DNA of 64,000 bases, taken from contig JAZNOU010000012.1 of assembly GCA_045589295.1 (NCBI GenBank), positions 1-64,000 of the forward strand, read 5' to 3'. The notes below the pieces were generated by a model. That model saw only the letters and a program-made list of their open reading frames with translations, was not told the DNA's origin and did not search any database. This document shows positions 35,034-56,277 of the stretch, piece by piece. A program made the position numbers and the translations under genes. Origin of the DNA: Clostridia bacterium (GTDB lineage: Bacteria; Bacillota; Clostridia; RGIG6154). Position 1 is the stretch's first letter, and each line of letters starts with the position of its first letter.

Positions 35034-35040
35034 ACACATT

Positions 35041-38000: not shown

Positions 38001-40539
38001 CAATACCTTGAAAAACTTAGCATTTAATGCGTTTAACGACTGTGAAAAACTTAAAAATCTTTTGATTCCATCATCGTTAGAAAACTTTACTGATGGCATA
38101 TACGGATTTAACAGATGTGGTAGCCTTACAGATGTTTATTATGTTGGAACAAAAGAAGAATTTAAACAAATTCCAAATTACTACTATGCAACATACAACA
38201 GACAAACGCTCCATTTCCTTGTATGGAATGAACCGTCTGCGACTTGCACAGAAGCAGGCGTTGAGGGATATTATTCCTTTGATGATATTTCTGTATACAA
38301 TACCAAGTATGATATAAACAAAAATGTGAAGACTTATTTAAATTCTGTTCCCGCAACAGGTCATAATATTGTGTGGATGGAAGAAATCCCTGCAAACTGT
38401 CATGAAACAGGAAAAAAAGAACGTTGGGAATGTGAGAACTGCGGAACGATTTATACGGATAAATCCAGCGCAACCGAAAGAACAGACGCAATTATAGAAA
38501 TCAATCCGAATAATCATCACGGAGAAACAGAATTAAGAGATGCAACTGACGGATTTACCGGAAATACGTATTGCCTTGGATGTGAACAAATAATCAGCAG
38601 CGGCGAAAACATCTATAAAATCAAGGTATCAGGAACGGAATTAGCAGTTGTTGGTTCAACCGAAATCTTAAAAACTGTAGAAGTAGGAACTGATAAGAAT
38701 GTAAATGCTTTATATTGCCTCATCAAATATCCTGATGCTTTAACATTAAAATCTATAACAGCAAAGGATTTTGCTTATGCAGAATTAGAAGATGAATACA
38801 CAGAAGATGGATTTACAACTGCAGTTATTTTAGCACAGTATTCTGATACAGAATTGATTCCTAAAAATGTTGTTCATACTCCTTTGGAATTAACATTTGA
38901 TGTTTCCAAATCAGCAGTTCCAGGAATTGTTCAAATTGAAGTAACCGAAGAATCTTGTTTGATCGGAAATGATACATATTTCTTTGGGGAGAGAATTCCG
39001 GGAACACTTGAAATTCTACCAAAGCTTGCAGAGAGTATCGAAATATCAGGTGAAGATGTTATTTCTTCCGAGGCAACATATAATGCGATTGTAAGTCCTG
39101 ATTACACAACAGATAAATCAATTGAATGGTCTGTAAATGACGAAACAATCGCAACAGTTTCAGAAGATGGTGTTGTAACACCTGTTACAAGTGGTACATT
39201 TACTTTAACAGCGACTGCAAAAGACGGAAGCGGTGTTTCTGCATCGAAAATAATTACTGTAACCAGAGGTGTTACAAGTATTGAAATTGTAGGAGCTGAC
39301 AGTATTACAGAAGCGACTACATATTCTGCAAATATTACACCTGACTATGCTACCAACAAAGAAGTGGAATGGTCAATCAGTAATACAGAAATTGCAATTG
39401 TTTATGATAACGGTGTGGTAACACCTATAACAAGTGGTTTAGTAACGATAACTGTTACGGCAAAGGATGGAAGTGGAGTTTCTGCATCAAAAGAGATTAA
39501 TATTATCAAGCTTGCGGAAAGTATTGAGATTACGGGTGAAGATAGTATTTCATCACCTGCACAGTACACAGCAATTGTATCACCTGATTATACATCTGAC
39601 AAAGAAGTTAGTTGGTCGGTTGATAATGAAGCAATTGCAACAGTTGACGAACTTGGTATTGTAACACCTTTAACAAGTGGTAATATAATCCTTACTGCAA
39701 TAGCAAAAGACGGTAGCGGTGTATATGCAACCAAAACAATTGAAATTGTAAAATTTGCAGAAAGTATTGAAATTGTCGGCAATGAAGAAATTACCGAACC
39801 ATCACAATACAGTGTAGTAATTCTTCCTGAATATACTACAAACAAAAATGCAGAGTGGTCTGTAAGTGATGAATCAATAGCAACTGTTGATGAAAACGGA
39901 CTTGTAACACCTCTTAAAAACGGCAAAATAGTTCTGACTGCAAAAGCAGAGGATGCAAGCGGAATTGAAACCACAAAGTCAATTGTTATTACCGTTAGTG
40001 TAAGAGCAAATTCCATTACCTCGGATGTTGGCGTATGGGACAAAAATTTTGATTCAGATATAACAGAGTATACAATTTCTGTACCTTCAGAAACATCTGC
40101 TATTTATCTGACTTCAAGCTTTACAAATGCGACTGCAAAGGTAAACGGAAGTGTTGCGGTAAATGGCGTTCGCAAAAAGGTTTCTTTAACAGGAACAGAA
40201 ACAGAAATTGAAATTGTATTATCACCAACATCAGGAAACAACTTAAATTCAAACACATACAAAATTACTGTAGCTTGTGGTTCGTATACAAAGACAATAG
40301 TTTCAGAAGATGGTAAATCATTCATTATTACACCTGTTAATATTGAAAATGGTAAAACTGTAATTCTTGCTTTGTATGACGGACAGAAACTTGTAGAAAT
40401 AAAACAAGCAATTTATCAAGGTGAAGAAATTCACTTTGCAACATCAAAGACCTATGACAAAGCAAAAATCTTTGTATGGGAAGATTTGAAAACAATGATT
40501 CCGCTGTGCGAAGAAAAAGAAATTTTGTTGAATAATTAA
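35041..40539 (+). CDS. Giant secreted adhesin-like protein: 2 CUB-like, GLUG-like repeats, BspA-type LRRs, cohesin-like, 4 Big_2 Ig, cadherin-like beta-sandwich
   Basis: Signal peptide; duplicated SAH.Y...TE.NYD.IYI...SD.S; GGICG.N.G repeats; AF.NCTSL; WSV..E.IATV.E.G.VTP x4. Confidence 0.85.
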   Translation: MKKKILLTVIVIMLSLIVFGAISASAATTVNVSTVSELQSAHPYSSNMDTTWVYTYPTEADSLEITFSSDTATESNYDWIYILDGDGNQIEKQSGTTLAGKTVTVPGNIVKIRLTSDGSVTKNGFTVTNIEAISSISGTVYVSSVDQFQSAHSYANNMDKTWVYTHPTTAENLSVTFSSDTETENNYDYIYILDGNDNQIGKYSGTSLTGKTVTVPGNVVKIRLTSDSSQTRYGFRITNIVTTGSSSSSNEETYQAATYRNGYYEIANASQLYWFAQQVNSGRTSINGKLVANIVVNEGNVYGSSRDYEVTSYKKWKSIGSSDKPYSGIFNGNNYTISGLYFYCANTTAASEYGRCGSMFYKITGTIYDLNIENSYFYHYNDGAAICAFNSGIIKNCYVKARVQAHNRLGIVYQNDEKIIDCDFDGDLLGVGATGGAVGGICNNNNGEIINCTNTGDILDGGGICRYNEGTVQNCYNYGDIINGSGSYLGGICAHNYGTITGCTNEGKISTSQLTSYSYAGGICGENSGAIERCANLADISYYKGYVGGICGQNKGDGLGANVIKDCYNIGRVEASSPYGCGGIVGRNYANVIGCYHRTGNIYITSQSNTGTICGVNGYNTNADGYKGVIRNCIDFWYYSGYQIGTSESGSVSKYVYPSNQLYGTNAAYFLNEFSSLGVVNWRQNIDNGQTVDSYPVLDSSHGIVYSNNSNTQSASALPDNLIARGGNAYISWSLDKNGLLTVTLSQTSTSGYYAYEAPWYPYRDQILTVKVKGDNTRVWDYAFFNCTNLKSVQLSSNIQIVGERAFANCTSLKSIYISNGTYQCFIEDYAFYNCTSLKEASFSIYTKVGKHAFDGCTDLDAIYINSIGSNGDIIEEDYAFDDVVATVYYPRSTYMYALPDDFSGDLTLQSADNGMCGSDVKWRFDSATGTLTLSGSGSTTVYSSGTNVPWGRFNGSVSKIVVEEGITELPSYIFEYCSSAEEIILPNTLKNLAFNAFNDCEKLKNLLIPSSLENFTDGIYGFNRCGSLTDVYYVGTKEEFKQIPNYYYATYNRQTLHFLVWNEPSATCTEAGVEGYYSFDDISVYNTKYDINKNVKTYLNSVPATGHNIVWMEEIPANCHETGKKERWECENCGTIYTDKSSATERTDAIIEINPNNHHGETELRDATDGFTGNTYCLGCEQIISSGENIYKIKVSGTELAVVGSTEILKTVEVGTDKNVNALYCLIKYPDALTLKSITAKDFAYAELEDEYTEDGFTTAVILAQYSDTELIPKNVVHTPLELTFDVSKSAVPGIVQIEVTEESCLIGNDTYFFGERIPGTLEILPKLAESIEISGEDVISSEATYNAIVSPDYTTDKSIEWSVNDETIATVSEDGVVTPVTSGTFTLTATAKDGSGVSASKIITVTRGVTSIEIVGADSITEATTYSANITPDYATNKEVEWSISNTEIAIVYDNGVVTPITSGLVTITVTAKDGSGVSASKEINIIKLAESIEITGEDSISSPAQYTAIVSPDYTSDKEVSWSVDNEAIATVDELGIVTPLTSGNIILTAIAKDGSGVYATKTIEIVKFAESIEIVGNEEITEPSQYSVVILPEYTTNKNAEWSVSDESIATVDENGLVTPLKNGKIVLTAKAEDASGIETTKSIVITVSVRANSITSDVGVWDKNFDSDITEYTISVPSETSAIYLTSSFTNATAKVNGSVAVNGVRKKVSLTGTETEIEIVLSPTSGNNLNSNTYKITVACGSYTKTIVSEDGKSFIITPVNIENGKTVILALYDGQKLVEIKQAIYQGEEIHFATSKTYDKAKIFVWEDLKTMIPLCEEKEILLNN

Positions 40540-40614
40540 AAAACAAAATAAAGTCAGATTATTAACAGAAATTATTATAAAATATCAATGTTAATAGTCT
40601 GACTTAAATTTTAT

Positions 40615-41202
40615 CTATTTTTCCAAAAGAGAAACATATTTATAAACTGTGGTTCGGCTCATATCACATACGCGAGCAAGTTCTGAAACATTCAGTTTTC
40701 CAGATTTCAAAGACGGGTAATGCCGTAAAAAGATAGACGGTATATCTTCTTTAGTTGATTGCGGTCGCCCGATAATCGCTCCTTTTGCTCTGGCATTTGC
40801 CATACCGGAACGGACTCTGGCTCTTATCATTGCTAGTTCTAATTGGCTGAATACTCCTGCCATTTGTAGAAATGCTTCACTCATAGGATCGCATTTACCG
40901 AAGCGACAATCAAGAGTTATACTGCCAACAATCATAAGTCTTAATTTTTTATCGCGAATAATATCGATGATTTCACAAAGTTGCTTTGTACTTCTGGCAA
41001 GTCTGGGAACTTCAAGAGTGATAATTGTATCGCCCTCTTTTGCCACTTCGAACATTGCTTTCTGTTGGTCTTTAATTTTACTGTCGCCGTGTTCGTATTC
41101 AAGATATATTTCTTCTGCCCCTGCCCCTTTCAGTTCTCTGACTTGTCGGTTAATATCCTGCTTTGATTCGTTTGTGCTACATCTGGCATATCCGTAATTC
41201 AT
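40615..41202 (-). CDS. Small serine recombinase (resolvase/invertase)
   Basis: YGYARCST, RLARST, GRP, C-terminal HTH SRTTVYKY. Confidence 0.92.
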   Translation of the reverse strand: MNYGYARCSTNESKQDINRQVRELKGAGAEEIYLEYEHGDSKIKDQQKAMFEVAKEGDTIITLEVPRLARSTKQLCEIIDIIRDKKLRLMIVGSITLDCRFGKCDPMSEAFLQMAGVFSQLELAMIRARVRSGMANARAKGAIIGRPQSTKEDIPSIFLRHYPSLKSGKLNVSELARVCDMSRTTVYKYVSLLEK

Positions 41203-41256
41203 AATTTATCCTTTCTACCGCTTCGCAAGGTTTCCCTCACGAAGCGGCTTTTATAT

Positions 41257-41535
41257 TTAACAAGAGATTGAAAATCTTCTGCTCGCACTCTGTTTTGTGA
41301 ATGCCTTGTAAAGTTCGCCGTACATTTTCTTAAAGTTTGTTGTGTCAAAACGATTACTTAATACGGAAGTCCAACGGATGATGTAACTGCCTGCAATAAG
41401 TTCTTCGGTTTCTCTTTCGAGCATTTCTTCTTTAATGCTATCGCGGATTGCTTCGGCTTCTGCCTTTGCTTGTTCCATAAGTTCTTCCCATTCGTTAAGT
41501 GCTTCGATTTTTGTGATAAGTTCTGATTTAGTCAT
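41257..41535 (-). CDS. Phage/MGE-type hypothetical protein
   Basis: Coiled coil then RFDTTNFKK...LYKAFTK...SRRF; clear SD. Confidence 0.65.
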   Translation of the reverse strand: MTKSELITKIEALNEWEELMEQAKAEAEAIRDSIKEEMLERETEELIAGSYIIRWTSVLSNRFDTTNFKKMYGELYKAFTKQSASRRFSISC

Positions 41536-41729
41536 TTTTAATTTCTCCTTTGGTTTGTTATTTATTTTAGGGTGTTTCCCTTGACTACATCTATATTATA
41601 ATACGAAAATCGTAATTTGTCAATACCTTTTTCGTAATTTATATTACTTTTTTAGAAATATTTTTTCGATTTATGTATTGATTTATTACGAAAGTCGTGA
41701 TATAATACCAAAAGGAAGGATGTGTTATT

Positions 41730-41939
41730 ATGATTAAATTTAAAGTTAAAGTTATGCTTGCCATTCGCGAGATGAATCAAAAAGAACTTGCGAAAGAAAC
41801 CGGCATCAGACCTCCGACAATTTCGGCAATTTGTAATAATTCTGTTAAGCATTTGCCAGTAGATGGATTAAATAAGATTTGTAAGGCTCTTGACTGCCAG
41901 CCGGCAGACTTAATGGAATACATTCCGGACGAAGAATAG
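41730..41939 (+). CDS. Cro/C1-type HTH regulator
   Basis: MNQKELAKETGIRPPTIS...ICKALDCQPADLMEY. Confidence 0.9.
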   Translation: MIKFKVKVMLAIREMNQKELAKETGIRPPTISAICNNSVKHLPVDGLNKICKALDCQPADLMEYIPDEE

Positions 41940-42247
41940 GGTGTATAATAAAACATCTGTTTTCGTGAACGGTTTTCCGCACATACCAAATGCCAAAAGT
42001 GAGACGAAAAACGGCGTGTTTTTGTTCAGGTAATTGCCGTCACCCTTTCGCGAACATAGGGGGGTAGTCTTTCGTGAAGAAAATTTTTTCAAAGGTGCTT
42101 GAGGTTTTTGGGTGGCTCATTTAATTATGGAATGATATTTTGATTTGGAATTACGATTATTATGTTCGTTTGCGTTAGAATATTTTTGCGACTCTGACGG
42201 CAATAAACGACAAAAACGGCAAGCAGTTATCAAAAACTACTTGCCGT

Positions 42248-42385
42248 TTATTTGAAATCTTTTAAAATTTCATCGAGTGCCATATCAAGTGCCGTTTTCA
42301 GGCTCTTTTGCATAATGCTGAACAACTCCTACTCTAATACTGATTTTTTCTTTTTCTTCTGGTCTTTCTTTTTATTATATCTCAT
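42248..42385 (-). pseudogene. 45-codon small ORF with an internal TAG
   Basis: MRYNKKKDQKKKKKSVLE*ELFSIMQKSLKTALDMALDEILKDFK; ATGA-coupled to the upstream ORF. Confidence 0.5.
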
Positions 42386-42555
42386 TTTGTTTTTTCCTTT
42401 GTTGTAATTATAATTTCGGTGGAGTCGTCATCATCTTCTGTGTGTTGCTCTATCATTTTTTTATGTAAAGCATTAAGTATTTCTTCTGGTGTGTATCCAT
42501 CCAGATACATTTCTGGATAATATTCCGGGAATTTTTCGTATTTATCTTTTAACAT
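42382..42555 (-). CDS. 57-aa hypothetical protein (not in ORF track)
   Basis: SD GAAAGGAG; MLKDKYEKFPEYYPEMYLDGYTPEEILNALHKKMIEQHTEDDDDSTEIIITTKEKTK. Confidence 0.65.
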   Translation of the reverse strand: MLKDKYEKFPEYYPEMYLDGYTPEEILNALHKKMIEQHTEDDDDSTEIIITTKEKTK

Positions 42556-42582
42556 TGTAATTCTCCTTTCTTATGGATGTGT

Positions 42583-42697
42583 AGGTTTTTGTCGCTTGCG
42601 ACAAAAACCTTAAGAATTGAGTGCTTGCACTCAATTCTTTTAGAGTAGTTTGCGCGCGATAGCGCAATAATTTTGTTTCTTTTGTTAGCAAAAGAAA
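42583..42697. repeat. Cluster of four inverted repeats
   Basis: Two adjacent perfect 13-bp stems with TT loops (42583-42610, 42612-42639), plus 6-bp and 9-bp stems. Confidence 0.85.
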
Positions 42698-42784
42698 ATA
42701 CTATGCCCTAATTTTCTATTATATATGAAATTTGTTGTATATCTATTTTTTTACTTTGTCCAAAAAATTTTTGATTCATAGATG

Positions 42785-43165
42785 CTATGCACTCAAGCCA
42801 AATTCTACTATTTCTGGATATTTTTTTAAGAACCATTTCTTGATTGTTGGATAACGTAAGCCTTGTCTGTGGCATTTGGAAATAGTGCGTAATTCGTTGA
42901 ACTCCTTAATAGTTGCGAGTGCAGTTTTTTCTTCTTCGTGTCTTAAAATATAATCTTCCATATATTCATAAGTTAATCCTTTGTATGATTCTCTGCTTGT
43001 GTTATAATTTATCGAACGTTTTACAACTTTGTATTCCGGATAATCTCGACGGACTTCTTGTAAATGTGCATACTCGGTGCTGCTGGTATTTTCTGATTTT
43101 ATTGCGAAGGTTCTGTCCATCACAATTAATTTTTTTTCGTGGTTTACTTTTAATAAATTTTTCAT
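42785..43165 (-). CDS. Hypothetical protein, paralog of 43199-43600
   Basis: Shared S.EY..L...R.D(Y/F)P, KGLT..YM..YI, IK.WFLKKYP. Confidence 0.75.
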   Translation of the reverse strand: MKNLLKVNHEKKLIVMDRTFAIKSENTSSTEYAHLQEVRRDYPEYKVVKRSINYNTSRESYKGLTYEYMEDYILRHEEEKTALATIKEFNELRTISKCHRQGLRYPTIKKWFLKKYPEIVEFGLSA

Positions 43166-43198
43166 AGTTATGATTCCTTTCTTTATATATTTTCTTTA

Positions 43199-43600
43199 TT
43201 AGGCACTTTTTAAAATCTTTTCTACTTTTCGTGTATATTCATTAAAAATCGGATATTTCTTCAAAAACCAAGCTTTGATTTCACCATAAGTTGCAGTTGC
43301 GGCAAGTTCAGTAATCTCCCATTCTTCGTTACGACCACAAAGAATGCAGAAGTCTTTCATAATCTCTTTTTCTTCGTTGTCATGGTTTTCAATGTATTTT
43401 TTCATATAGTCAATTGTTAAGCCTTTGAATGAATTATTTTTCTTTCCTGAATTTATTGCAACGACCTTGAAATTAGGGAAGTCGGCACGCGCCGCTTTTA
43501 ACATATTGTATTCGTCTGATCCAAAAATACTTGCTTTGTTTGAAAATGATTTTGCTACCTCAATTGTTCTGTTTTTTTCATTGATTTTGATATTGTTCAT
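43199..43600 (-). CDS. Hypothetical protein, paralog of 42785-43165
   Basis: Same shared motifs; SD GAGG. Confidence 0.75.
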   Translation of the reverse strand: MNNIKINEKNRTIEVAKSFSNKASIFGSDEYNMLKAARADFPNFKVVAINSGKKNNSFKGLTIDYMKKYIENHDNEEKEIMKDFCILCGRNEEWEITELAATATYGEIKAWFLKKYPIFNEYTRKVEKILKSA

Positions 43601-43675
43601 AATTATTTACCTCATTTCTAAAATTTTTAAATTAAATTTGAAATTTTTCCTTTCTTTGTTAATAAATTTTTTGTT

Positions 43676-43912
43676 TTAATTATTATTTTCTTGTTGATTC
43701 ATGAATTCAATGTAATCGAATTTGATTTTCTTCTGCATAAGTAAGTATTCTGTTTTGCCTTGCGGCACATCGTTGATTACTTTATGCATTGCGGCAATCC
43801 ATTTGCATTTTTCAATATCTTCTTCTGTTGGATTGCTTAATGATATTTCCTCAATGTCATAAGACATTTTAAGGATTTTATCATAAAGACGTTGGTAATC
43901 TTTTAACTGCAT
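43676..43912 (-). CDS. Hypothetical protein
   Basis: SD AGGAGG; overlaps the upstream ORF in the same operon. Confidence 0.6.
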   Translation of the reverse strand: MQLKDYQRLYDKILKMSYDIEEISLSNPTEEDIEKCKWIAAMHKVINDVPQGKTEYLLMQKKIKFDYIEFMNQQENNN

Positions 43913-44157
43913 ATTCTTATCCTCCTTTCTATTAAAAATATATTGTTTAAGGGAAGCGGCTTTACATCGGAAACTATCACTTCTTTATAGTCTGGGTATT
44001 TCTTTTTATACTGAAAATACATTTTGGTTGAATACATTCCCAGATCGTTGAGATTTTTGACTGTTTCTTCTGGTAATCGTAATTGCTTCTTTCTTAAATC
44101 GGCAGTTACCGGACAAACCAGAAATAATTGATTTGTTTCTTTTTTGTTGTTCTTCAT
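43903..44157 (-). CDS. Hypothetical protein
   Basis: First ORF of the leftward small-gene operon; SD-like GCAGGT. Confidence 0.55.
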   Translation of the reverse strand: MKNNKKETNQLFLVCPVTADLRKKQLRLPEETVKNLNDLGMYSTKMYFQYKKKYPDYKEVIVSDVKPLPLNNIFLIERRIRICS

Positions 44158-44591
44158 TTTAATACCTGCTTTCTAGTATGTTTTTTATTAAGAGGGTTTT
44201 GCTTTCTTCCCCTCTCTGTGATTTTATTATAGCATTTTGACAAAAAGGATGTGTCGTTATAATGGTAATTTTTAAACAATTTTAAAAAAGTTTTTAGAAT
44301 ATTTTTTAAGGGAAGCGGCAAGTACATATTTGCCGAATAGAAAGAAGGTTTTAAAATGATGTTTAAAAGATGTTAAATTGATGTTTGCATCTGGAATAAA
44401 AGTTATTTAAAAGATGAATGAATCTGTATAGAAATATGTTTTGACAGAAGATATAACTTTGTGTTATAATGTGGGTAATGAATCACACTATTGATGGTGA
44501 TAACTATAAATTATTAATTGAAAAAGACTGTAATATCAAGGGTTGAATGTTCCGGCTTCCTTTCATCAAGACCACGAAGTGGGCTTGATAT

Positions 44592-44684
44592 GTTGAAATG
44601 ATGGGTCTCATTGGCGCTGGTAACAACCCAATGGTTGGTATGACTGTTGCAGTTGCAGTTGCTGTAGAAGAGGCTTCAAAATAA
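44592..44684 (+). repeat. attR: displaced 3' end of the GGGtGRT gene
   Basis: Encodes VEMMGLIGAGNNPMVGMTVAVAVAVEEASK*; followed by a terminator-like hairpin at ~44710-44754. Confidence 0.92.
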
Positions 44685-44821
44685 TTTAAGAATTATATTA
44701 TGATGATTTTACGGGGGAAAACCGCATCGACAAAGAAAGCGGTTTCCCCCGTACTCTTTTTTTAAATAATTTTGTAAAAAAAAGGCTGTTTTTTAGACAG
44801 CCTTTTTGATTTAAATTAAAC

Positions 44822-45106
44822 TCACTTATATACAATTATAACTTGTTTATTTAAATCTTGATACCATTCAATAGTATCATCGAAGGTTTCCTTGATATAA
44901 GGAAATTCATATGCAGGAATTCTTGGTAGATTATTACTTCCAATAACCGTAATATGAGCAGGTGCTTCCATATGTCCTGTAAGCATATCCCAGATGGCAT
45001 CGGGATTTTCTCCGCACCATTCGGGAAAGTCAAGCCCCTTGATAATTCTTTGATAAAAGGCTGATAAATCTGTCACATTTGTAAAGTCGATAGTGTAATA
45101 ATTCAT
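44822..45106 (-). CDS. Barstar-family ribonuclease inhibitor, copy 2
   Basis: FPEWCGENPDAIWDMLTG; close paralog of 1993-2277. Confidence 0.9.
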   Translation of the reverse strand: MNYYTIDFTNVTDLSAFYQRIIKGLDFPEWCGENPDAIWDMLTGHMEAPAHITVIGSNNLPRIPAYEFPYIKETFDDTIEWYQDLNKQVIIVYK

Positions 45107-45115
45107 ATTTCCCTC

Positions 45116-45646
45116 CTAAATGATTTCATAAAAAGTGTTATAATGGTCATAGGTTACAAATAAGAGTCCGTCATTTGAATACAAAAGTCTGTGAGTATTT
45201 CTGAACCCACCTATATAATTTATATCCGCTTCATACCACACTCTTCCTGGTTTTTCGGGAAGTTTGTGCTTTCTGTCTCGAAATATGTCTCCGCCCATTG
45301 TTGCCCACGGAAGAACCGATCTTAAATTTCCTTTACGCTTGTCCCAACCGTGTTTTTCCGCATATTTTTTATCCACATAGTTTTTCGGTAATTCTCCATA
45401 CATTTTCAGCGACATATCTGCTCCTGAAAGTCCGTTTATTGTAGCAGTACCGCTATATATAGCGCCAAGAGGTGCTAAAGTGCAGCGACAATTAGGGTGC
45501 AAAGGGGGAGTAAATAAATCGTAAACTGCAAAAATTCTTAAATTAAGTTTAAGACATCTTTCGCATGTGGTAGGTGAAATTTTTACATACCAACAGTTCC
45601 AATTTTCACTTTTGGTTATTGCAGGATTTAGATTGTTATCACCCAA
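45116..45646 (-). CDS. Barnase-family RNase toxin with an N-terminal MuF-type CxxC...PPLHPNCRC motif
   Basis: TCERC...PPLHPNCRC; WYEADINY.GGFRN.HRLLYS.DG...DHY retains the barnase catalytic E, R, R and H. Confidence 0.85.
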   Translation of the reverse strand: MGDNNLNPAITKSENWNCWYVKISPTTCERCLKLNLRIFAVYDLFTPPLHPNCRCTLAPLGAIYSGTATINGLSGADMSLKMYGELPKNYVDKKYAEKHGWDKRKGNLRSVLPWATMGGDIFRDRKHKLPEKPGRVWYEADINYIGGFRNTHRLLYSNDGLLFVTYDHYNTFYEII

Positions 45647-46325
45647 AATAGTATCGTTCCTTTCTTTTTTAAAGTAAATAACGTTATTTTAGGTGTGATT
45701 ATAACATATAGGTAATGTGACATTCAAGGACAAGATTTATTTTATACTAATTACAGGTTTGCGTCAAGTAAAGAAAAAAGATTTGCAAGGTTACATGAAT
45801 TGAGCTATAATGTGTGGCAAATGACACGCAGATGATGTGGACAATGTCGGAGCAAACAGGGCTTTGGCTATGAGAAATACCCACTCGCAAGAGTGGGTAT
45901 TTTGAATGCAGCGTAGTTTGCTGCGACGTGGTGGAGATGAAATGTACTTTCACAGTTTCACTAACAAAACCCGTAAAGCCTATGAAACTCTATGGTGTCG
46001 GACAATTTCTACATACCATTTCACAACAGATTTTGACATCTGTTTCATCCTTCTCTCGACCGCCATTTGGTGTGTGCAAATTTTTTGGATTTTCTGTTGG
46101 TGGAAACCATCGAACACAGAGAGTTTCAAAACTGCATTTTCTTCATCACGAAAGCCATCTCTCTTTTTGCGATGGCTTTGTTTTATTAGTAATGTATATT
46201 AAACCTTTTTAAGATTACACTTAACAAAATAACCTAAAGTAAATCAGTAAATTTGACTTTACATCATGATTTAAATATGATATAATTATAATTAAATCAT
46301 GGAATAAATTAAAAGGAGGATATTT

Positions 46326-46517
46326 ATGAATAAAACTCCATCTCTTTGTGGTCGCCCATCTGGAAGAAAAAAGACTGCTAAAATTGAAGTTGTTATTGAA
46401 CCAGAAATAAAAGAAAAATTTATGAAAATTATTTCAAACGAAGGAAAGACAGCATCGGCTGAAATAGGATGTTGGATTAGAAAATATATCAAAGAAATGA
46501 ATACAGATAATATATGA
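46326..46517 (+). CDS. Small ribbon-helix-helix-like protein, possible R-M controller
   Basis: SD AAGGAGG; GRP...KIEVVIEPEIKEKF...ASAEIGCWIRKYI. Confidence 0.6.
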   Translation: MNKTPSLCGRPSGRKKTAKIEVVIEPEIKEKFMKIISNEGKTASAEIGCWIRKYIKEMNTDNI

Positions 46518-46558
46518 TATTTAAATTATGTATTTTGTGAAAGAAAAGGAGTTTAGAT

Positions 46559-48151
46559 ATGGATAAAAACCGTTTAACAGGTTCCTATTATACATCACAA
46601 AAGATTGCTCAGTATATGGTTAATTGGGCAATAAGAAGTGCAGATGATTTATTTCTGGAGCCTTCATTTGGCGATGGTGTTTTCATAGATGCTGCATTAA
46701 CTAGATATTCGAATTTGGGAAATAATTCACCGAGTATTATAGGCGTTGAATTGCAACCAACTATTTATTCAAAATATATGGATTTATCTGCTGATGGCAT
46801 TGAAGGATACTGCCAAGATTTTCTGACTTTTACTCCAAACTCAGAAATCACGGCGGCTGTTGGAAACCCTCCGTACGTAAGGCTAAGAAATCTCGATGAA
46901 AATTCTAAAACTATTGCAATAGATTGCACAGCAAAAAATAAAGTAAAGATGCTTACTAGTGGCAGTTTATGGATGCCTTTTACAATTCACAGCACTTCAA
47001 TGTTGGCAAATGGTGGTCGACTCGCTTTTGTTTTACCTTTTGAGCTTACCTATGTTAAATATGCACACTCATTGTGGAGTTTTCTAGGGGAGAACTATGG
47101 GGAACTGAAAATCATACGCATACATGAAGACTTCTTCCCTGATGTAGATGTTGAAACAATCATCTTGCTGGCAGATAATAAGGGTGGCAGTACTTCAACA
47201 ATTGATTTTTTAGTATATGAAAATGTTGATAATATGTTTGCTCAAAATACATCTTTGCAATCACAAATTAATATTTCAGATATAATACATGGTAAAAAAC
47301 CATTTGTATTGTCATTATTGAACACAGAACAACGTGCGATGCTAGAAAATATACGTAATAAGCAAATTGTTACGCCTCTTGTTGATGTTTGCAAATTTAA
47401 TATTGGTTATGTGTGCGCTGATAAGGAGTTTTTTCATCCAACTTCAGCAACACAAATAAGTTTTAATATTCCAAAGGACAATATGATTCCTTGCATTAGC
47501 AATGCTAAAGAAATTAATGGTGGCACAAATATTGGTGCAGTTGTGGAAACAGACAAATGCAAGAGCCGTCTATATTTGCCAAAAGAAATAACCAAATCAG
47601 ATAAAAAGTATATTAAACATGGCGTTGATAAAGGCGTTAATTTACGATACAAATGCCAGCAACGTAGTCCTTGGTATATAACCCCGAATGTTGAAATTCC
47701 AGAACTGATACTAACGGTATTTGGTGATGCCCCAAAATTAATTGCCAATAAGGGCAAATATGCAGTATCTAACAGTTTACTTGCTGGGCGCATTGTTTCT
47801 GAGATTACGGCTGAACAAATCATATGTATGTGGTATAATAGTCTTACTTTGTTATCCATTGAGTTGAATATTCATTCATTGGGCGGAGGTGTATTAGTAC
47901 TTATTCCTGGTGAGACGGACAAATTAGAAATAATAAATAAAATTCCTGATAAATATACCGAAAAAGTATTAAGGCAAATTGACGAATGTATTAAAACGCA
48001 AGGTGTTCAAGCTGCATATGAACTAGGGGATACATTAGTGCTTAAAAATATTCTTGGATTTTCAAATGAGCAAATTAATCAAATTAAAGATGCGGTTTCG
48101 TTGTTGCAATTTTGGAGAAAGCCTGAAATACGGCGTAATAAAAACAGGTGA
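46559..48151 (+). CDS. N6-adenine DNA methyltransferase (gamma-type order)
   Basis: GSYYT, FLEPSFGDGVF (motif I), GNPPY (motif IV), C-terminal TRD region. Confidence 0.9.
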   Translation: MDKNRLTGSYYTSQKIAQYMVNWAIRSADDLFLEPSFGDGVFIDAALTRYSNLGNNSPSIIGVELQPTIYSKYMDLSADGIEGYCQDFLTFTPNSEITAAVGNPPYVRLRNLDENSKTIAIDCTAKNKVKMLTSGSLWMPFTIHSTSMLANGGRLAFVLPFELTYVKYAHSLWSFLGENYGELKIIRIHEDFFPDVDVETIILLADNKGGSTSTIDFLVYENVDNMFAQNTSLQSQINISDIIHGKKPFVLSLLNTEQRAMLENIRNKQIVTPLVDVCKFNIGYVCADKEFFHPTSATQISFNIPKDNMIPCISNAKEINGGTNIGAVVETDKCKSRLYLPKEITKSDKKYIKHGVDKGVNLRYKCQQRSPWYITPNVEIPELILTVFGDAPKLIANKGKYAVSNSLLAGRIVSEITAEQIICMWYNSLTLLSIELNIHSLGGGVLVLIPGETDKLEIINKIPDKYTEKVLRQIDECIKTQGVQAAYELGDTLVLKNILGFSNEQINQIKDAVSLLQFWRKPEIRRNKNR

Positions 48152-48170
48152 GTTTACTCACCTGTTTTTA
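48139..48170. terminator. Bidirectional terminator between the convergent R-M genes
   Basis: TAAAAACAGGTGAG-TTTA-CTCACCTGTTTTTA. Confidence 0.75.
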
Positions 48171-48172
48171 TA

Positions 48173-48901
48173 TTATCTTTTTTTAATTGGATTGAAAATA
48201 TTTCGATTATTATGGGTATCAATTAACTTATCAAAGAAATTTTGAATCTGCAGAATTTCTTTTGTTGGCAACAATACTGGTGGATTTTGTGTAAAATCAA
48301 CTTTTAAAAATGCAAAATGTTCATATTTATCGTGTGCATCTCTCCAATCAGAACGCCCAGTAATTTTCTCAAAAAGATTTTCTGCTTTATCAAGCTTTAC
48401 CTCTTCAGTTAAACCTGGCTTAATTGGTGCTGTAGGTAACAGGTACACATAACCGATGGTAGCCATTGGAAAACGGTCATGAAGAGAAATACATTCACCA
48501 ATTATACCTTCATAATAGTTTTCAAGATTTTTCGCAACCGAAGACATTTGACTGCGAACGCCTATAATGATTTGAGGACCATTCGCATAATGTGAAAGCA
48601 CAATATCAGCATCTTTATTCTTGTGAGAACCAAACAATGTAGCTTCTTGCATTATTTGAAGACCATTCGTTGCTATATTCACCCTTGGATAATGTGGTAT
48701 GTCCTTTGAGCGAACCATGTCACTTAAAGGGATGTATTGGATATTCACGCTTGGGTCAATAATGTTTTTTAACTGTTCTATGCAGTATTGATGTAATGGA
48801 AAGATAAAATTAGAGCCACGGACTGAAGCTACAGGGTCGTTTAAATAAATCTCCTTCATATTTGTCAAACAATTTATAAGTTCTGTCATGTTAGCGGGCA
48901 T
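48173..48901 (-). CDS. Putative type II restriction endonuclease
   Basis: Convergent with the MTase; KDADIVL...IGVRSQMSS..KN..N..E..IGE resembles PD-(D/E)xK-type REases. Confidence 0.6.
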   Translation of the reverse strand: MPANMTELINCLTNMKEIYLNDPVASVRGSNFIFPLHQYCIEQLKNIIDPSVNIQYIPLSDMVRSKDIPHYPRVNIATNGLQIMQEATLFGSHKNKDADIVLSHYANGPQIIIGVRSQMSSVAKNLENYYEGIIGECISLHDRFPMATIGYVYLLPTAPIKPGLTEEVKLDKAENLFEKITGRSDWRDAHDKYEHFAFLKVDFTQNPPVLLPTKEILQIQNFFDKLIDTHNNRNIFNPIKKR

Positions 48902-49051
48902 AATAACACCATCCTTTTTTATTAATTATACCACACATTTACAATTTTTTCTACATTTTGTTGAAATATATATGCTAACACGCTGTTACTAATATAGACA
49001 ATTCTATAAATGAGGATGATATTTACAAAAAATGTTTGACCTATTTGTACA

Positions 49052-50605
49052 TTATGCAGATTTTTTATGTTCCTTTTTATGTTCCGAAGATGTTTTGAGT
49101 GTGATTTCAACTCTGTCATGGTGCACAACAATTTCATCAACAAAGCTACGGATTAGCTTTCTGCACACAAGCAGGTCTTTCTTCAAAAGATATTTTTTAA
49201 ATAACTTCTTAACCTTATCTATCTCATCGGAAGTTACGGTATCAGCTTTATAGTTATTATAGTATTCATATTTATTATTAAGAGCTATCTTCTTATTTTC
49301 AAGCTCTTTGAGTTTATCGGTTAATGACTCTAAATTATCAGATTGTATCAATGCATCAGTTAACTTATTTATAGCAATATCAAGCTGTGTGAGTTCATTT
49401 TTTATAGATTTTTTCTTGTTGATTGACAGAACATTTCTCTTTTCAATTTTCTCATTCAGAGCCTTCAATATCCGTCTGTAATTTTTTTCATCAAATATTA
49501 TATCGAGAAGTAAATCAAGAACAAAATCGTTTAAATACTTAATATTTACCGCTTTATTCTTGCATCCGTCTCTGTACGCACCACATCTGTATGTTGCGTA
49601 TTCTGTCTTGTTTCTTCCTGAAAAACTTGTGTTGCCTGTGTAGGCTTTGCCACACTCTCCGCAGACAATCAAGCCGTTAAGCAGATAGTATCTTTTACTG
49701 TGATATGTACCTGCAATTTCTCTATTGGCTTCTTTCTTAGCTAAAAATTTATTATATGTTTCATCATCAATTATCCTTGGCATACCATCAGGAATTCTAA
49801 TTATCTCGCTATCGTCCTTGTATCTGTGAGAGTTGCGAGTTCCATCATTATATTTTGAAGCGGCTCTGTTATAGATGTATACTCCTGTGTATCTCTCTGC
49901 GTTTTCAAGAATTGAGCTAAAGGAATTTTTATTAAATGGTAATTCCTTCTTGGTGGTATATCCATTTTTATTAAGATAATCCGCTATTTGTTTATATGAG
50001 TAATCATTTATATACATCTGAAAAATGAGTTTAACAACTCTGCTTTCTTTATCATTATTAATATACTTTCTATCCTCGCCTACATCGTAACCATATGGTG
50101 GCAATCCACCAACATGCCAACAGTTGTATGCCGCTTCTTTCTTTCCTTTTTGTACCTCTGTTGCGAGATTTCTGCTAAAGTAATCACTCAGAGAAAACAT
50201 CATGTTTCTTGTAAATACACTTGCAGGCGAAGCATCATTAGGCTCTGTAACACTAATTAACTTAACCCCGAGTTTCTCTAACATACATTCATAAGTATGT
50301 GCATTATTCATGTTTCGTGAAAACCTGTCGAACTTGTGTACTACAACAGCATATATGCCTGCCTTTTTTGCTTCTTTCATCATCTGCTGAAAGGCTTCTC
50401 GGTCATCGGTGGTCGCAGATTTTGCCTCGTCAACAAATTCCTTTTCAATTATGTAGCCTTGCTTTTTGCAAAATTCACGGATGGCTCTGCGTTGGGCATC
50501 AATTGACATTGGATTTTGCATGTTAGACGAGTATCTCATATATATGAAAACTCTTTTTAAAAACCTTCTGTCTGTCGGTCTGTTTTTCTTCTTTTTCTTA
50601 GTCAT
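49052..50605 (-). CDS. Large serine recombinase 1
   Basis: YMRYSS, DRFSR, PPYGY, Zn ribbon CGECG...YRC...C, coiled coil. Confidence 0.95.
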   Translation of the reverse strand: MTKKKKKNRPTDRRFLKRVFIYMRYSSNMQNPMSIDAQRRAIREFCKKQGYIIEKEFVDEAKSATTDDREAFQQMMKEAKKAGIYAVVVHKFDRFSRNMNNAHTYECMLEKLGVKLISVTEPNDASPASVFTRNMMFSLSDYFSRNLATEVQKGKKEAAYNCWHVGGLPPYGYDVGEDRKYINNDKESRVVKLIFQMYINDYSYKQIADYLNKNGYTTKKELPFNKNSFSSILENAERYTGVYIYNRAASKYNDGTRNSHRYKDDSEIIRIPDGMPRIIDDETYNKFLAKKEANREIAGTYHSKRYYLLNGLIVCGECGKAYTGNTSFSGRNKTEYATYRCGAYRDGCKNKAVNIKYLNDFVLDLLLDIIFDEKNYRRILKALNEKIEKRNVLSINKKKSIKNELTQLDIAINKLTDALIQSDNLESLTDKLKELENKKIALNNKYEYYNNYKADTVTSDEIDKVKKLFKKYLLKKDLLVCRKLIRSFVDEIVVHHDRVEITLKTSSEHKKEHKKSA

Positions 50606-50780
50606 TTTTTAGTGCCTTCTTTCTGATATGTTTTAATATTCTGTAAATTACGGGAACAGGTGTTTTGAGTTTTAACTTTTCGTCAAAACTGCCTTTAATG
50701 ATTTTGATTTTAACATTTGAATATTCTTCGTTGTATAGACTTTCTCTGTCGATGATATATCTGGCAATCAAGTTTATCAC
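50598..50780 (-). CDS. Small basic hypothetical protein overlapping the LSR1 start
   Basis: SD GGGGGTG; stop overlaps the recombinase start. Confidence 0.55.
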   Translation of the reverse strand: MINLIARYIIDRESLYNEEYSNVKIKIIKGSFDEKLKLKTPVPVIYRILKHIRKKALKND

Positions 50781-50805
50781 CCCCTTTCTTTGCCTTTTAT
50801 TGATA

Positions 50806-51204
50806 CTATTTAATCTTCACAAACGCTGTCACAATTCCATTGATGCTTTTTACCTTTACATTATCAAACGACATAGATGTTCGTTCGCTAAAATCGAGGC
50901 CGAAAATTACTGTTATGTATTTTACCAAAGCGGCATTATATACAATTCCTTTTCCTTTATTTGATACAGAATACTTGTTGCCTGCTTCATCTATGTCCGC
51001 AGCAATTATCAGGAATCCATTACCGACATCTGCTGCAAGCTTTATAAATTCAGGCTTTCCCAATGCTTCAAACAGGCTCTTGGATAAGGTGAGTCGCTTG
51101 CCATTATCACAGAATACCAATGATACGGATTTTGTTGATTTACCCCCTTTCTCGCTTGATACGTTAATAGCTTTTGCGTTAGCTAAAATTTCTTGTGCTT
51201 TCAT
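50806..51204 (-). CDS. Hypothetical beta-rich protein
   Basis: SD AAGGAAG; between the helicase and LSR1; NGKRLTLSKSLFEALG is AbrB-like in pattern. Confidence 0.65.
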   Translation of the reverse strand: MKAQEILANAKAINVSSEKGGKSTKSVSLVFCDNGKRLTLSKSLFEALGKPEFIKLAADVGNGFLIIAADIDEAGNKYSVSNKGKGIVYNAALVKYITVIFGLDFSERTSMSFDNVKVKSINGIVTAFVKIK

Positions 51205-51252
51205 AGCACAACACTTCCTTTCATTTTATATTTTAAATAATAATGATATTAT

Positions 51253-52677
51253 TTAATTAACAAATACATCATTGCCATCGTCTGTGTATGGTAAATTTAA
51301 TTTGCAATAGGTTGTGCAACCTAAAGGTCTGTATTTCTTTAAAGAAATATTCATCGTTCGTCTGTTTCCATTAGACTTTTTTGTAATCATACCCTGTCCT
51401 GTCTTTTTTATAAAAATCAGATTGAACTCCATCCAAAATTTAGTGGTTGAAATATGAGCATATTTAATATGATTATTAGCTTTACACCAATTTATAAATG
51501 CCTGATAAACTGCACTCCTTGTTTCCCATATGGATTTATCTTCCGACACCTTGAAATAAATACACTCATTCCAAAATGCTTCAAATGGATTGGACATAGT
51601 TATATACTGATTTTTCAGTTTCTCTATCTTTTCCGAGTCAGTAAATCTGAAATCATTGGAATTAAGCCTGTTAAAACCTTTTATCGCCAAATTAAAAATT
51701 CCTGGCAACTCTTTCTTTAACTTTTCTTCCAGATGAATATCAGCTGTTCCGTCTTTAATAGAGAATTGTTTTTCAAAAGGAACGATGATAATTCGGCGGA
51801 AAAATCCGTCAGAAATATCTTTAAACTGCGGTAGTGTATTGGTGCTGAATATCAGCTTACAGAATGGTTTGAATGAAAAAACATCTTTACCTTTAAACTC
51901 TGCCGATATAGCATCACCGCCTGTGATAGCCTTTATATATTGTGTATCAGTAACCTGTCCGTTGTAGCTTTCGTTTTCAGTAGATATATTAACTAATTTA
52001 TCCAATAAAACCGATTTATTAAATCTCTTTGCAAAATCCCTTATTGGTACAGTAGAACAATTATCTTCGCCGACTAATGCCATAATCAAATTGCACAGTA
52101 CAGATTTTCCGTTTGCTCCCGTTCCGAAAAACAAGAAGAAGCATTGTGCTGAATTATTCCTTGTCATTATATATCCCATCAACTCCTGAATGACTTTCAT
52201 TATCTCTCTGTCATCATCAAATATGCTTTTTAAAAATTTGATAAATTGAGGACATTTTGCCTTTTTATCATATTTAATCGGGAGCTGTACAGTGCAATAA
52301 TATTCAGGGCTATGCGGAATAAGCTTGTTAGTCTCCAAATCATACATTCCATTTTTCAGGCAAATCAAGTTTTGGTATTTGTTGAATTCACCGCCATAAA
52401 ATGCAATTCTTTTCAGTGCAGTAAAATAGTACTCCTCTGCTCTTTTGTTAAATGAATTCGGATATGATGTGGAAAGAATCAGTTTCGCCATAATCGCTTT
52501 TAAGCGTTCTTCTGAAATCGGCTTATATGCTCCGTGACGATACATATAATATTTACCGTTATCTGCATAAATAATATTGTACTTCCTATGTACATACAAT
52601 GCGAATAAATTACTGTCAAGATAAACCCCATCATCACCTGTTTCTCTGAAGCCCATTTCTTGTTCATTGTTCTTCAT
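51253..52677 (-). CDS. D5/P4-family SF3 helicase (no primase domain evident)
   Basis: LKNGMYDL, CPQFIKFL, GTGANGKS, KAITGGD, FSTN.LP, FFRRIIIVPF. Confidence 0.9.
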   Translation of the reverse strand: MKNNEQEMGFRETGDDGVYLDSNLFALYVHRKYNIIYADNGKYYMYRHGAYKPISEERLKAIMAKLILSTSYPNSFNKRAEEYYFTALKRIAFYGGEFNKYQNLICLKNGMYDLETNKLIPHSPEYYCTVQLPIKYDKKAKCPQFIKFLKSIFDDDREIMKVIQELMGYIMTRNNSAQCFFLFFGTGANGKSVLCNLIMALVGEDNCSTVPIRDFAKRFNKSVLLDKLVNISTENESYNGQVTDTQYIKAITGGDAISAEFKGKDVFSFKPFCKLIFSTNTLPQFKDISDGFFRRIIIVPFEKQFSIKDGTADIHLEEKLKKELPGIFNLAIKGFNRLNSNDFRFTDSEKIEKLKNQYITMSNPFEAFWNECIYFKVSEDKSIWETRSAVYQAFINWCKANNHIKYAHISTTKFWMEFNLIFIKKTGQGMITKKSNGNRRTMNISLKKYRPLGCTTYCKLNLPYTDDGNDVFVN

Positions 52678-52792
52678 AATAACCTCCTAAAATAATATTT
52701 TGAATTCGAATTCTGAAGTTATTATATCAAATATTATTTTAAAAAACCAATTGGAATATTCTTATATTATCAGAGAATATAAATATTTTTTG

Positions 52793-52833
52793 CAAGAAAT
52801 ATTCTTGAAAAAATTCTCAGCAAGTGATATAAT
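52793..52833 (+). promoter_or_regulatory. SigA-type promoter with an overlapping palindrome (candidate operator)
   Basis: TTGAAA(52805)-17-TATAAT(52828) with TG; CAAGAA-ATA-TTCTTG overlaps the -35. Confidence 0.55.
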
Positions 52834-52895
52834 AGTAAAGGGTATTGAAAAAAACTATACTTCTGTTTGAGCATAAAAAAGTTGAGGTGAATTAA

Positions 52896-53438
52896 ATGGC
52901 GTATATGAGACGCAAGAAAAAAATGAGTCCCGAACTAGAAAAAGACTATTATCAGCAGTTGATGTCCTTGGTTAATAAAAATCTTCCGGGGCTCACACAA
53001 AATCAGCTATTAATAGAGATTAATAAGTATGCAAGAGATAAAGGATATCAAATAACCCAACCTGAATTATCAAAAGATTTATCAAAGATTAATATAGTTA
53101 AAGTAAAGGAAACTATAAAAAGCATTGTTAATGGTGAAGAAATACTAGAAACACAAAATGTATTCAGATACAAAGAACCCATCCCCACAGCAACTCTTCC
53201 GCCGATATTTAGCGAATATATAAGAGGCAAATCGACCTTATTTAAAAAACCTAAGTGTTTAAAAATACCAGTAAAAGAAGGAACTGAACAAATAGTGTGT
53301 AAGGAACTTTGTGAACATTACGGGCATGCAAATTTAATATATATTCCAGCATACAAAGCAGTTTGTATCATTGTTCTGAATTCTGAAAGTGCTATAACGA
53401 AGATAGAAACCATACAAGAACAAATTAACAAATTATAG
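52896..53438 (+). CDS. Divergent ArgR/AhrC-like regulator
   Basis: TQNQLL...GYQITQPELSKDLSKINIVKV matches the ArgR wHTH (TQ.EL...G..VTQATVSRD..EL.LVKV). Confidence 0.65.
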   Translation: MAYMRRKKKMSPELEKDYYQQLMSLVNKNLPGLTQNQLLIEINKYARDKGYQITQPELSKDLSKINIVKVKETIKSIVNGEEILETQNVFRYKEPIPTATLPPIFSEYIRGKSTLFKKPKCLKIPVKEGTEQIVCKELCEHYGHANLIYIPAYKAVCIIVLNSESAITKIETIQEQINKL

Positions 53439-53541
53439 ATTTTTGAAATTAGTAATCATTCAAATATATATCATATTATTGAAAGCCAATAGGAAATCAA
53501 ATTCCTATTGGCTTTTAATATTTTATGAAAGGATTGTTAAA

Positions 53542-55639: not shown

Positions 55640-55931
55640 ATTAGGAACTAAAAAAGAGCTTTACAAGGTAAATCACTTACCCAAAAGAGTTAGAGAATAT
55701 ATTGAGGGTGATGTTGCTGCTTTAGATTGCTTTTATGGTGATGACAGGAATATAGATGCTGATTTTGGCGGTTTTGTTGTAGTATGCGAAGCGGATGAAG
55801 TGCTTGACATTGAAAATTTTGTAGAAGATTTGGAACAAGCGGAGTACATACAAGACATTTGTCCCTATCGAAAAGCACTTTATATTGCGGGAACTGAGCG
55901 AAATATCATTATCTACAGAAAGAGGAACTAA
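55629..55931 (+). CDS. Hypothetical protein
   Basis: Overlaps the DUF1643 stop; LDCFYGDDRNIDADFGGFVVV. Confidence 0.65.
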   Translation: MSIKLGTKKELYKVNHLPKRVREYIEGDVAALDCFYGDDRNIDADFGGFVVVCEADEVLDIENFVEDLEQAEYIQDICPYRKALYIAGTERNIIIYRKRN

Positions 55932-56006
55932 ATGGACAAACGCAAGGACAATGGGATTTTACTTGGGAAATCAGATTTGGTAAAATATTCCTCAGAGGTG
56001 ATTTTA

Positions 56007-56264: not shown

Positions 56265-56277
56265 AGGAGAACAGTAT

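Follow-up and report, generated by a model that had tools for sequence, protein, structure and literature searches.

Among described systems, the closest are the polymorphic toxins that carry the MuF domain of phage head proteins. Passages of Zhang et al. 2012 (PMC3482391) tabulate Tox-Barnase with MuF trafficking and Imm-Barstar, and the pairing of MuF, barnase and barstar is already in print since that year; the same passages describe MuF-system toxins as marked by neighbouring capsid-packaging genes. In the main text of Jamet et al. 2017 (PMC5576092), from which the words 'barnase' and 'truncated' are absent, MuF toxins are exclusive to temperate phages, 96% of muf genes are in prophages or their remnants, and gp7 of SPP1 binds the portal. 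Characterised members are Apk2 and Bxa, and passages of the source that describes them (PMC11699363) present MuF as a hypothesised capsid-targeting domain and the delivery route of MuF toxins as still a hypothesis. Attention is drawn here to a short form of such a toxin, present as two cassettes (copy 1 and copy 2) in the first 64,000 nucleotides (nt) of contig JAZNOU010000012.1 of a Clostridia bacterium; this whole stretch is called the window below, its contig is C12, and the genome to which it belongs (G000) is 1.54 Mb. In copy 1 a truncated MuF segment, termed mini-MuF, is joined to a barnase-type ribonuclease (RNase) and followed by a gene for the inhibitor barstar. The reading favoured, with a probability of about 0.55, takes the cassette for a self-contained toxin-immunity operon that derives from the MuF polymorphic toxins of phages and is turned on together with phage late genes.

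Compared with the MuF modules of Zhang et al., the combination of toxin, immunity and MuF is the same, whereas the truncated MuF, the stand-alone loci and the shared promoters are not among the systems that those passages describe. With MuF polymorphic toxins in general the cassette has in common a MuF-derived N-terminus, a C-terminal toxin for cytoplasmic targets, a small immunity gene directly downstream, gut Firmicutes hosts and mosaic histories of the N-terminal versus the toxin part. Unlike them, it keeps the last ~60 of ~112 MuF-domain positions and none of their ~200-300-amino-acid (aa) body, its gene lies elsewhere than between portal and scaffold, and no phage structural gene is near it in 22 of 26 loci (detailed locus counts here and below rest on 80 kept loci, and neighbourhood counts on 26 loci with at least 6.5 kb on both sides); its phage link is instead a copied late promoter or a position in a lysis module. 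Barnase is Sec-secreted and made with a signal and a propeptide, and satellite promoters, as in the SaPI/RinA-LtrC case, answer the late activator of a helper phage. Set against the barnase-barstar pair of Bacillus amyloliquefaciens (PDB 1BRS, 1A2P), copy 1 has ~51% identity over the mature enzyme with the same fold, catalytic residues and barstar helix, but a MuF zinc knuckle stands in place of the signal/propeptide region, and the gene has a tie to a phage-like element. T4 Alt-like proteins, as a passage of Iyer et al. 2017 (PMC5512222) has it, are produced late, enter the heads and are injected along with the DNA. The cassette would work like such injected proteins combined with satellite promoters. 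Orphan cassettes of contact-dependent inhibition (CDI) and Rhs systems, which are usually without start and promoter and lie behind a full-length gene, also consist of a short conserved N-terminal piece, toxin and immunity gene, with frequent decay and extra immunity genes; unlike them, the cassette operon is autonomous and its genome is without a full-length gene. Literature listings on MuF with barnase or barstar, and on barnase with phage defence, yielded no truncated stand-alone form, though supplements may list such.

That the N-terminus is MuF-related had been proposed by a sequence-only reading of the window, and profile libraries, a fold search and a phage match now agree with it on one and the same segment. 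The Phage_Mu_F profile (PF04233) gives a sub-threshold match to toxin aa 19-57 (8.6e-4; profile positions 69-111 of 112). Measured as a whole ~110-residue MuF domain, the segment falls short with both PF04233 (20.5 bits, cut-off 29.6) and TIGR01641 (28.3, cut-off 39.65), the latter match being confined to model positions 63-108 of 109. Several relatives exceed the PF04233 cut-off (30-54 bits), again only over profile positions 50-111, and five PHROG head-protein families match the same segment as Pfam and TIGR01641, three independent libraries thus agreeing on one segment and on one end of their models. The family alignment shows no variation at C28, C31, H50 and C55, and at least 90% conservation at C53. 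A profile built from 51 N-termini finds 3755 proteins at E <=1e-3 and retrieves true full-length MuF proteins, among them P0246 and P0238, the latter with SAP and a complete MuF domain. The model made for residues 1-66 has a mean predicted local distance difference test (pLDDT) score of 86, and its top 50 matches in BFVD are mostly MuF-type, minor capsid or head morphogenesis proteins, with a template modelling (TM) score of ~0.6 on the query and a root-mean-square deviation of 1.3-2 A over 45-52 columns, the E values for so short a query being weak (1.7e-3 to 0.3) and the geometry consistent. Against solved structures the N-terminal profile gives no sequence match, and the best VIA-align Z is 2.1, from which no fold can be named. 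In a tblastn comparison, the counterpart of residues 19-60 is the final 42 codons of the MuF (head morphogenesis) gene of Clostridium phage phi8074-B1, where the order is the canonical terS-terL-portal-MuF-scaffold-capsid; mini-MuF is 45-48% identical to the end of Clostridium phage MuF proteins. From the library, fold and tblastn matches, therefore, the toxin N-terminus corresponds to the C-terminal zinc knuckle of MuF, and on these alignments it appears to be exactly the MuF piece that precedes the toxin domain in MuF toxins. Of the features of a MuF polymorphic toxin, a toxin extension of at least 100 aa (here 110) and an immunity open reading frame (ORF) are present, and the MuF domain is only partial; none of the 26 loci is directly behind a recognised portal gene.

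The remainder of the toxin is barnase. Pfam Ribonuclease (PF00545) matches aa 85-175 (2.9e-10), and among solved structures residues 68-175 align with residues 2-109 of the 110 of mature barnase (E 3e-31). The residues aligned to WREADINY, GFRNSDR and DHY of barnase are kept as E139, R149, R153 and H168, which are invariant among 28 family members and which we take to correspond to the catalytic set Glu73, Arg83, Arg87 and His102. An AlphaFold toxin model made from the 28 family members (pLDDT 93, predicted TM score (pTM) 0.87) superposes on barnase with a Foldseek TM of 0.88-0.90 normalised to the target, at ~51% identity; in the model there is no linker, the strand after CRC passing directly into the first barnase helix. 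With a full-length alignment and the catalytic residues kept, the domain is predicted to be catalytically intact, as the sequence-only reading had it. By eye, the N-terminus is hydrophilic and no hydrophobic stretch is seen in it, a judgement made with no signal-peptide predictor. The barstar gene placed by that reading behind the toxin gene is there as well: its 94-aa product matches Pfam Barstar (PF01337; 5e-16) and PDB barstar (E 3e-6) and retains the helix that binds barnase, GENxDAxWDxLTG, including two Asp, Trp and Thr-Gly (GENPDAIWDMLTG aligns with GENLDALWDALTG of barstar). It is presumably the cognate inhibitor of the copy 1 toxin. In PADLOC neither protein matches any family, which means only that this is not a catalogued system.

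The short form is not peculiar to this window. A word-based search found 551 proteins of 96-308 aa, and in a scan of one genome per species at least 544 of 605 candidate stretches encode a relative, all in Clostridia and mostly in gut metagenome-assembled genomes. In all 80 kept loci the frame (170-343 aa) is closed upstream by a stop codon. Longer upstream frames at L049, L065, L067, L018, L028 and L023, considered as extra MuF, were rejected and read as non-coding run-through. Barstar is detectable downstream in 69 of the 80; at least four of the other 11 loci end at the toxin gene, and seven loci have two or three barstars. The ratio of nonsynonymous to synonymous substitution rates (dN/dS) for mini-MuF is 0.02-0.35 in 27 of 28 computable pairs (37 pairs, 70-97% identical and not independent), the single outlier pair having almost no substitutions, and that for the barnase part is 0.05-0.30. 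With values well below 1, mini-MuF is kept by purifying selection, and together with the stop-closed short frames this disposes of the possibility that the homologs are muf genes truncated in situ; the short form is a widespread family under purifying selection and not a local truncation. As to fused long forms, a whole-protein search, which was not exhaustive, gave one PT-HINT-barnase protein matched in its barnase part only, and an equally non-exhaustive N-terminal-profile search for longer proteins gave only 128-301 aa among the matches listed. Internal-deletion forms, in which mini-MuF is followed by the last barnase strands or by barstar-like tails, are frequent among database representatives (P0130, P0131, P0150, P0187, P0220, P0221, P0233, P0146, P0183, P0257, P0328), and since they are many, recurrent disarming of the toxin seems common. 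Mosaic history is also evident: between copy 1 and a cassette of the sister genome G002 (G002A), leader and mini-MuF are 92-97% identical and barnase and barstar 59-80%, with parts of the copy 1 barnase nearer to that of copy 2 than to that of G002A. Exchange at the domain junction, as these identities suggest, is a signature of polymorphic toxin loci.

The connection to phage late genes comes from the promoter region. The sequence-only reading placed the cassettes outside any prophage, which holds within the window but not for the contig, since 34 kb to the right of copy 1 a related phage-like element, small and siphovirus-like, occupies a 14.3-kb block between holA and rpsO (C12:79185-93483, loci L112-L114). 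It encodes an HTH protein, a 96-aa ORF (ORF96), terS, terL, an SPP1-type portal, scaffold, major capsid, connectors, Dit, tail fibres and endolysin; on reading the 14.3 kb no integrase, replication or muf gene was seen, 10 nt separate the portal gene from the scaffold gene, and for ORF96, which precedes terS, no family match was obtained. The lineage of the element is present in 12 species, beside holA in both genus members checked, and its 11 relatives from other species share the head module and have no space for a muf gene, so that 12 of 12 are without a muf slot. The G000 element could be of the gene-transfer-agent kind or a prophage that has become defective.

Upstream of the element's terS is the 17-mer TGTCCTTGAATGTCACA (C12:79818-79834), followed after 18 nt by TGG-TATAAT, and the same 17-mer stands exactly in the leaders of both window cassettes (coordinates of these and other features are in Table 1). 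With up to two mismatches allowed, these two sites and the terS promoter are the only three in the 1.54-Mb genome, all of them exact; a reversed-pattern control gave none, and the genome's 31 further TGTC-N6-TGTC sites all lack this promoter architecture. In each of the 12 elements TGTC-N6-TGTC with a -10 hexamer stands equally far from terS, the background rate of the box being 9.4e-6 per base. All four cassettes of G000 and G002, two in each, carry the box exactly as in the resident element. In G007, where the cassette is 23 kb from its element on the same contig, cassette (TGTCATTTAATGTCA) and element (TGTCATTGAATGTCA) both have A where G000 and G002 have C. Since the cassette promoter copies the element's terS promoter, the phage connection gains direct sequence support. 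In G008, the last of the four genomes of this family with intact cassettes, the cassette (L007) has no box of its own and is part of the late operon of the element: endolysin, toxin, barstar and holin follow one another with gaps of at most 11 nt; on IMG/VR contig L091 a decayed cassette comes just after endolysin and a holin-like ORF. The idea of a purely host-side module does not survive these relatives, in which the cassette belongs to a phage lysis module. Each of the six genomes of the bacterial family that have a cassette also has the element lineage, a count which, the genomes being related, is without statistical weight.

The upstream blocks reported as common to both cassettes are real, the 17-mer being one and the perfect palindrome AAATAACGTTATTT the other. 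The palindrome, operator-like by its position, is exact across the genome only at the two cassettes, is found in both G002 cassettes too, and is absent from the phage-like element, including its terS promoter. As a genome-wide operator it was rejected: besides the two exact sites there are three one-mismatch sites, against four for a control. The claim of a conserved regulatory leader has to be narrowed to this lineage, as the blocks recur in one of 80 other loci. Two TACCATATGGTA-type palindromes between the divergent HTH gene and ORF96 of the element (L114 1415-1465; C12:79415-79465) are probably operators of the HTH protein, distinct from the TGTC box.

From these components a course of events can be proposed, its steps differing in strength. 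The cassette is likely to be transcribed together with the late (head, tail and lysis) genes of the element, by whatever factor reads the TGTC box. Barstar would, very probably, protect the producer and any other carrier of the cassette. More tentatively, and with odds somewhat below even, mini-MuF would act as a capsid- or portal-targeting tag, with the RNase packed, barstar stripped at ejection and the toxin delivered into barstar-free cells; if it is not packed, the toxin would simply be released at lysis. Doubtful is the still more specific proposal that chromosomal cassettes parasitise or arm a MuF-less particle, with a copied late promoter to time their expression and the ~60-residue zinc knuckle as a minimal portal or capsid tag, barnase encoded in trans being packed and injected so that carriers of barstar survive and others are killed.

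A number of observations weigh against the favoured reading, either in its phage wiring or in the role of mini-MuF. In six genomes that have the element lineage the query used found no cassette, and the TGTC box is upstream of only two of 80 other cassettes. Phage structural Pfam matches within 6.5 kb are confined to four of the 26 loci (L009, L023, L049, L052). With 78 of 80 cassettes without the box and 22 of 26 loci without a phage structural gene, the phage wiring is seen only for this lineage, which comprises four genomes in three genera that are related and not independent. The element of G000 is without the 177-aa and 499-aa tail-region genes present at L007 and may not make particles, and promoters P1 and P2 are predicted, from consensus. 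Of the MuF domain no more than the C-terminal third to half remains, and with the missing part portal targeting may be lost. The modelled toxin halves form one compact unit (pTM 0.87); the best 120 matches of a length-open N-terminal profile search include no toxin family but barnase-type RNases, and a single mini-MuF-Ntox37 protein was seen. A compact unit with near-exclusive barnase pairing would be expected of an integral accessory domain no less than of a generic trafficking tag. Toxin and barstar are moreover co-transcribed, so induction alone does not free the toxin.

The last point bears equally on the alternative that fares best of those considered, itself unlikely, that the cassette is a phage-sensing abortive-infection or toxin-antitoxin module: a decoy late promoter would fire late in infection, RNA would be degraded and the infection aborted, and binding of mini-MuF to portal or procapsid might be what triggers the release of barnase from barstar. 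The promoter box common to cassette and element speaks for this, no signal peptide is apparent by eye, a full MuF gene is in none of the seven cassette-bearing relatives, and some of the company is suggestive: a type II restriction-modification (R-M) pair adjoins copy 1, a PDC-S45/LmuA-like protease adjoins copy 2, and SLFN-ATPase, TIR and ParE/Phd neighbours are at L004, L058, L079 and L014. However, with toxin and inhibitor translationally coupled on one transcript, induction would yield an inert complex; neither protein has a PADLOC family match; and carriage of the cassette in the lysis module of the element itself would be self-defeating against that lineage.

Carriage in a lysis module is in keeping with another possibility, judged somewhat less probable still, that holin and endolysin of the element free an extracellular RNase to scavenge nucleic acids or harm neighbours, with mini-MuF a folding or RNA-binding accessory without a capsid role. 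The cassette is in or beside lysis genes at L007 and L091, the late promoter is shared, the N-terminal module takes the exact place of the signal/propeptide ahead of a complete mature barnase, and the domains are modelled as one unit, the module being nearly exclusive to barnase-type partners. Yet free barnase cannot enter intact bacteria, its release would be as the very tight complex with barstar, and purifying selection on a MuF-derived zinc knuckle in particular is left unexplained. An orphan recombination cassette or selfish remnant, i.e. a toxin-swapping reservoir or addictive pair in which mini-MuF is only a homology arm, would account for the mosaic breakpoint at the domain junction, the frequent decay (copy 2, C-terminal remnants in G001 and G003, internal-deletion database forms) and the tandem extra barstars of seven loci, and polymorphic toxins do diversify by recombination with stand-alone toxin cassettes in the abstract of Zhang et al. 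2012 (PMC3482391), but it is highly improbable for an operon with its own start codon, ribosome-binding site (RBS), two promoter-like sites and terminator, an N-terminal module conserved as protein with dN/dS well below 1, no full-length muf to recombine with in G000 or the other cassette-bearing relatives, and a resident element lineage without a muf slot.

The genomic distribution differs from that given for muf genes by Jamet et al. 2017. The full-length short form is in none of 50,697 phage genome records; plasmids gave barnase-domain matches only, in 56 records of which none reaches 80% coverage of the query; and IMG/VR yielded two contigs. Neither window copy is within a prophage, and no full-length MuF gene is in the window genome or in the seven cassette-bearing relatives. 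Besides the four of the 26 loci with a phage structural match, several others have mobile or defence neighbours, the SLFN-ATPase, TIR and ParE/Phd cases among them, and the remaining loci are beside housekeeping genes. Eight of the 80 cassettes (L013, L019, L024, L026, L027, L031, L040, L079) adjoin spoVAD or GGGtGRT genes or fragments, which form a recurrent insertion neighbourhood for the cassettes.

A displaced duplicate of the 3' end of a GGGtGRT-family gene (29938-30936; Pfam 2e-193) is beside the barstar gene of copy 1. This duplicate marks the right end of a 13.7-kb integrase element (30844-44685), so copy 1 lies just outside it; the element also encodes a tyrosine recombinase (31074-32009), WYL and HTH regulators, a 1849-aa LRR/Big_2/CUB surface protein (34990-40539) and a small resolvase (40615-41202). 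On the other side of copy 1 is the type II R-M pair (methylase 46559-48151, nuclease 48173-48901) followed by an island, the region spanning 46326-57747, with two large serine recombinases, a D5-type primase, DUF1643 and a Mor-family regulator, which ends at the tmRNA gene (57747-58095) next to smpB; near copy 1 no tmRNA 3'-end duplicate of 16 nt or more was found as an island border. A 71-nt block upstream of the copy 1 leader (45798-45868) is in G002 (L004 11068-11236) downstream of barstar, beside a GGGtGRT fragment, and from this difference in position the cassette flanks are circularly permuted between the two genomes.

As to the second paralogous cassette that the sequence-only reading had placed at 1993-2759, its barstar is intact and its leader shared, and its toxin is broken. 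An 88-nt internal deletion right after PPLH (junction ~2578/2579) takes out PNCRC and the first barnase helix and shifts the frame. The syntenic copy in G002, which is of the same genus (L098), has the 88 nt and an unbroken frame beside the same SDR and diacylglycerol-kinase genes; with the sister-genome orthologue intact, copy 2 is a recent pseudogene with a surviving immunity gene, and it would now supply only a second barstar. G001 and G003, also of the genus, retain only the last 42-47 codons of the toxin. Each of the 78-nt direct repeats that bracket copy 2 contains a 14-codon + strand mini-ORF (MNQLNELKDKK[K/R]FY) and then a hairpin that differs between the two repeats. The bracket suggests that the cassette entered by recombination at that repeat; no alignable flank for an empty site was found in G001 and G003. 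To the left of copy 2 (3-1800), a Zn-ribbon/LIM-like protein, DUF960, an Xis-like HTH_17 protein and the trypsin-like protease that matches PDC-S45/LmuA make up what looks like a defence or mobile islet.

Table 1. Positions in the window of the two cassettes, their predicted regulatory sites and the bordering repeats
Feature	Position	Strand	Remarks
Copy 1 toxin ORF	45116-45646	-	176 aa; TTG start; RBS GAAAGGAA
Toxin residues 1-66, mini-MuF zinc-knuckle module	45449-45646	-	C28, C31, H50, C53, C55; S13 and W19 invariant
Toxin residues 67-176, complete barnase domain without linker	45116-45448	-	PDB alignment, Foldseek, AlphaFold
Copy 1 barstar gene	44822-45106	-	94 aa; 9 nt past the toxin stop; AGGAGG overlaps the stop
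Promoter-like site P1 (upstream)	45739-45767	-	TTGACG, 17 nt, TAAAAT; predicted, consensus scan with 10/12 matches
Predicted promoter P2	45698-45732	-	TGTC-N6-TGTC box, 18-nt spacer, TGn-TATAAT; consensus scan
17-mer TGTCCTTGAATGTCACA containing the TGTC-N6-TGTC box, copy 1	45716-45732	-	exact match
Perfect 14-nt palindrome AAATAACGTTATTT	45676-45689	.	just downstream of the P2 -10 hexamer; putative operator
Terminator-like hairpin at the end of the copy 1 operon	44779-44807	.	T-run on the gene strand
Displaced duplicate of the GGGtGRT-gene 3' end, beside copy 1 barstar	44592-44685	+	94 nt, 93.6% identity to 30844-30937; tblastn 44562-44681
Copy 2 toxin pseudogene	2287-2759	-	mini-MuF frame 2493-2759 (88 aa); barnase frame 2287-2574 (95 aa)
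Copy 2 barstar, intact	1993-2277	-	Pfam 2.8e-18; 69% identical to copy 1 barstar
Copy 2 leader	2758-2848	-	P1-like 2819-2848; TGTC box 2796-2812; P2 2778-2807; palindrome 2758-2771
78-nt direct repeat, left, bracketing copy 2	1872-1949	.	93.6% identical to the right copy
78-nt direct repeat, right, bracketing copy 2	2887-2964	.	same bracket at sister-genome locus L098

Databases annotate members of the family as 'phage head morphogenesis protein' or 'minor capsid protein', and if mini-MuF is only an accessory of the RNase the outcome is a modest correction of that annotation. MuF toxins are common in gut phages, the short family is in hundreds of gut Clostridia species, and its cultured carriers include Caproicibacter fermentans and Hydrogeniiclostridium mannosilyticum. 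The family is a natural minimal MuF toxin, in which about 60 MuF residues are set on an enzyme that is well understood and easy to assay and whose inhibitor is known. What gives it value is the promoter link together with the minimal MuF tag, which raise the questions of whether that segment suffices for encapsidation and whether a host gene can load its product in trans. If packing in trans is true, this would be a particle-delivered toxin whose gene is off the particle genome, and the least that a MuF toxin needs as encapsidation signal would thereby be defined.

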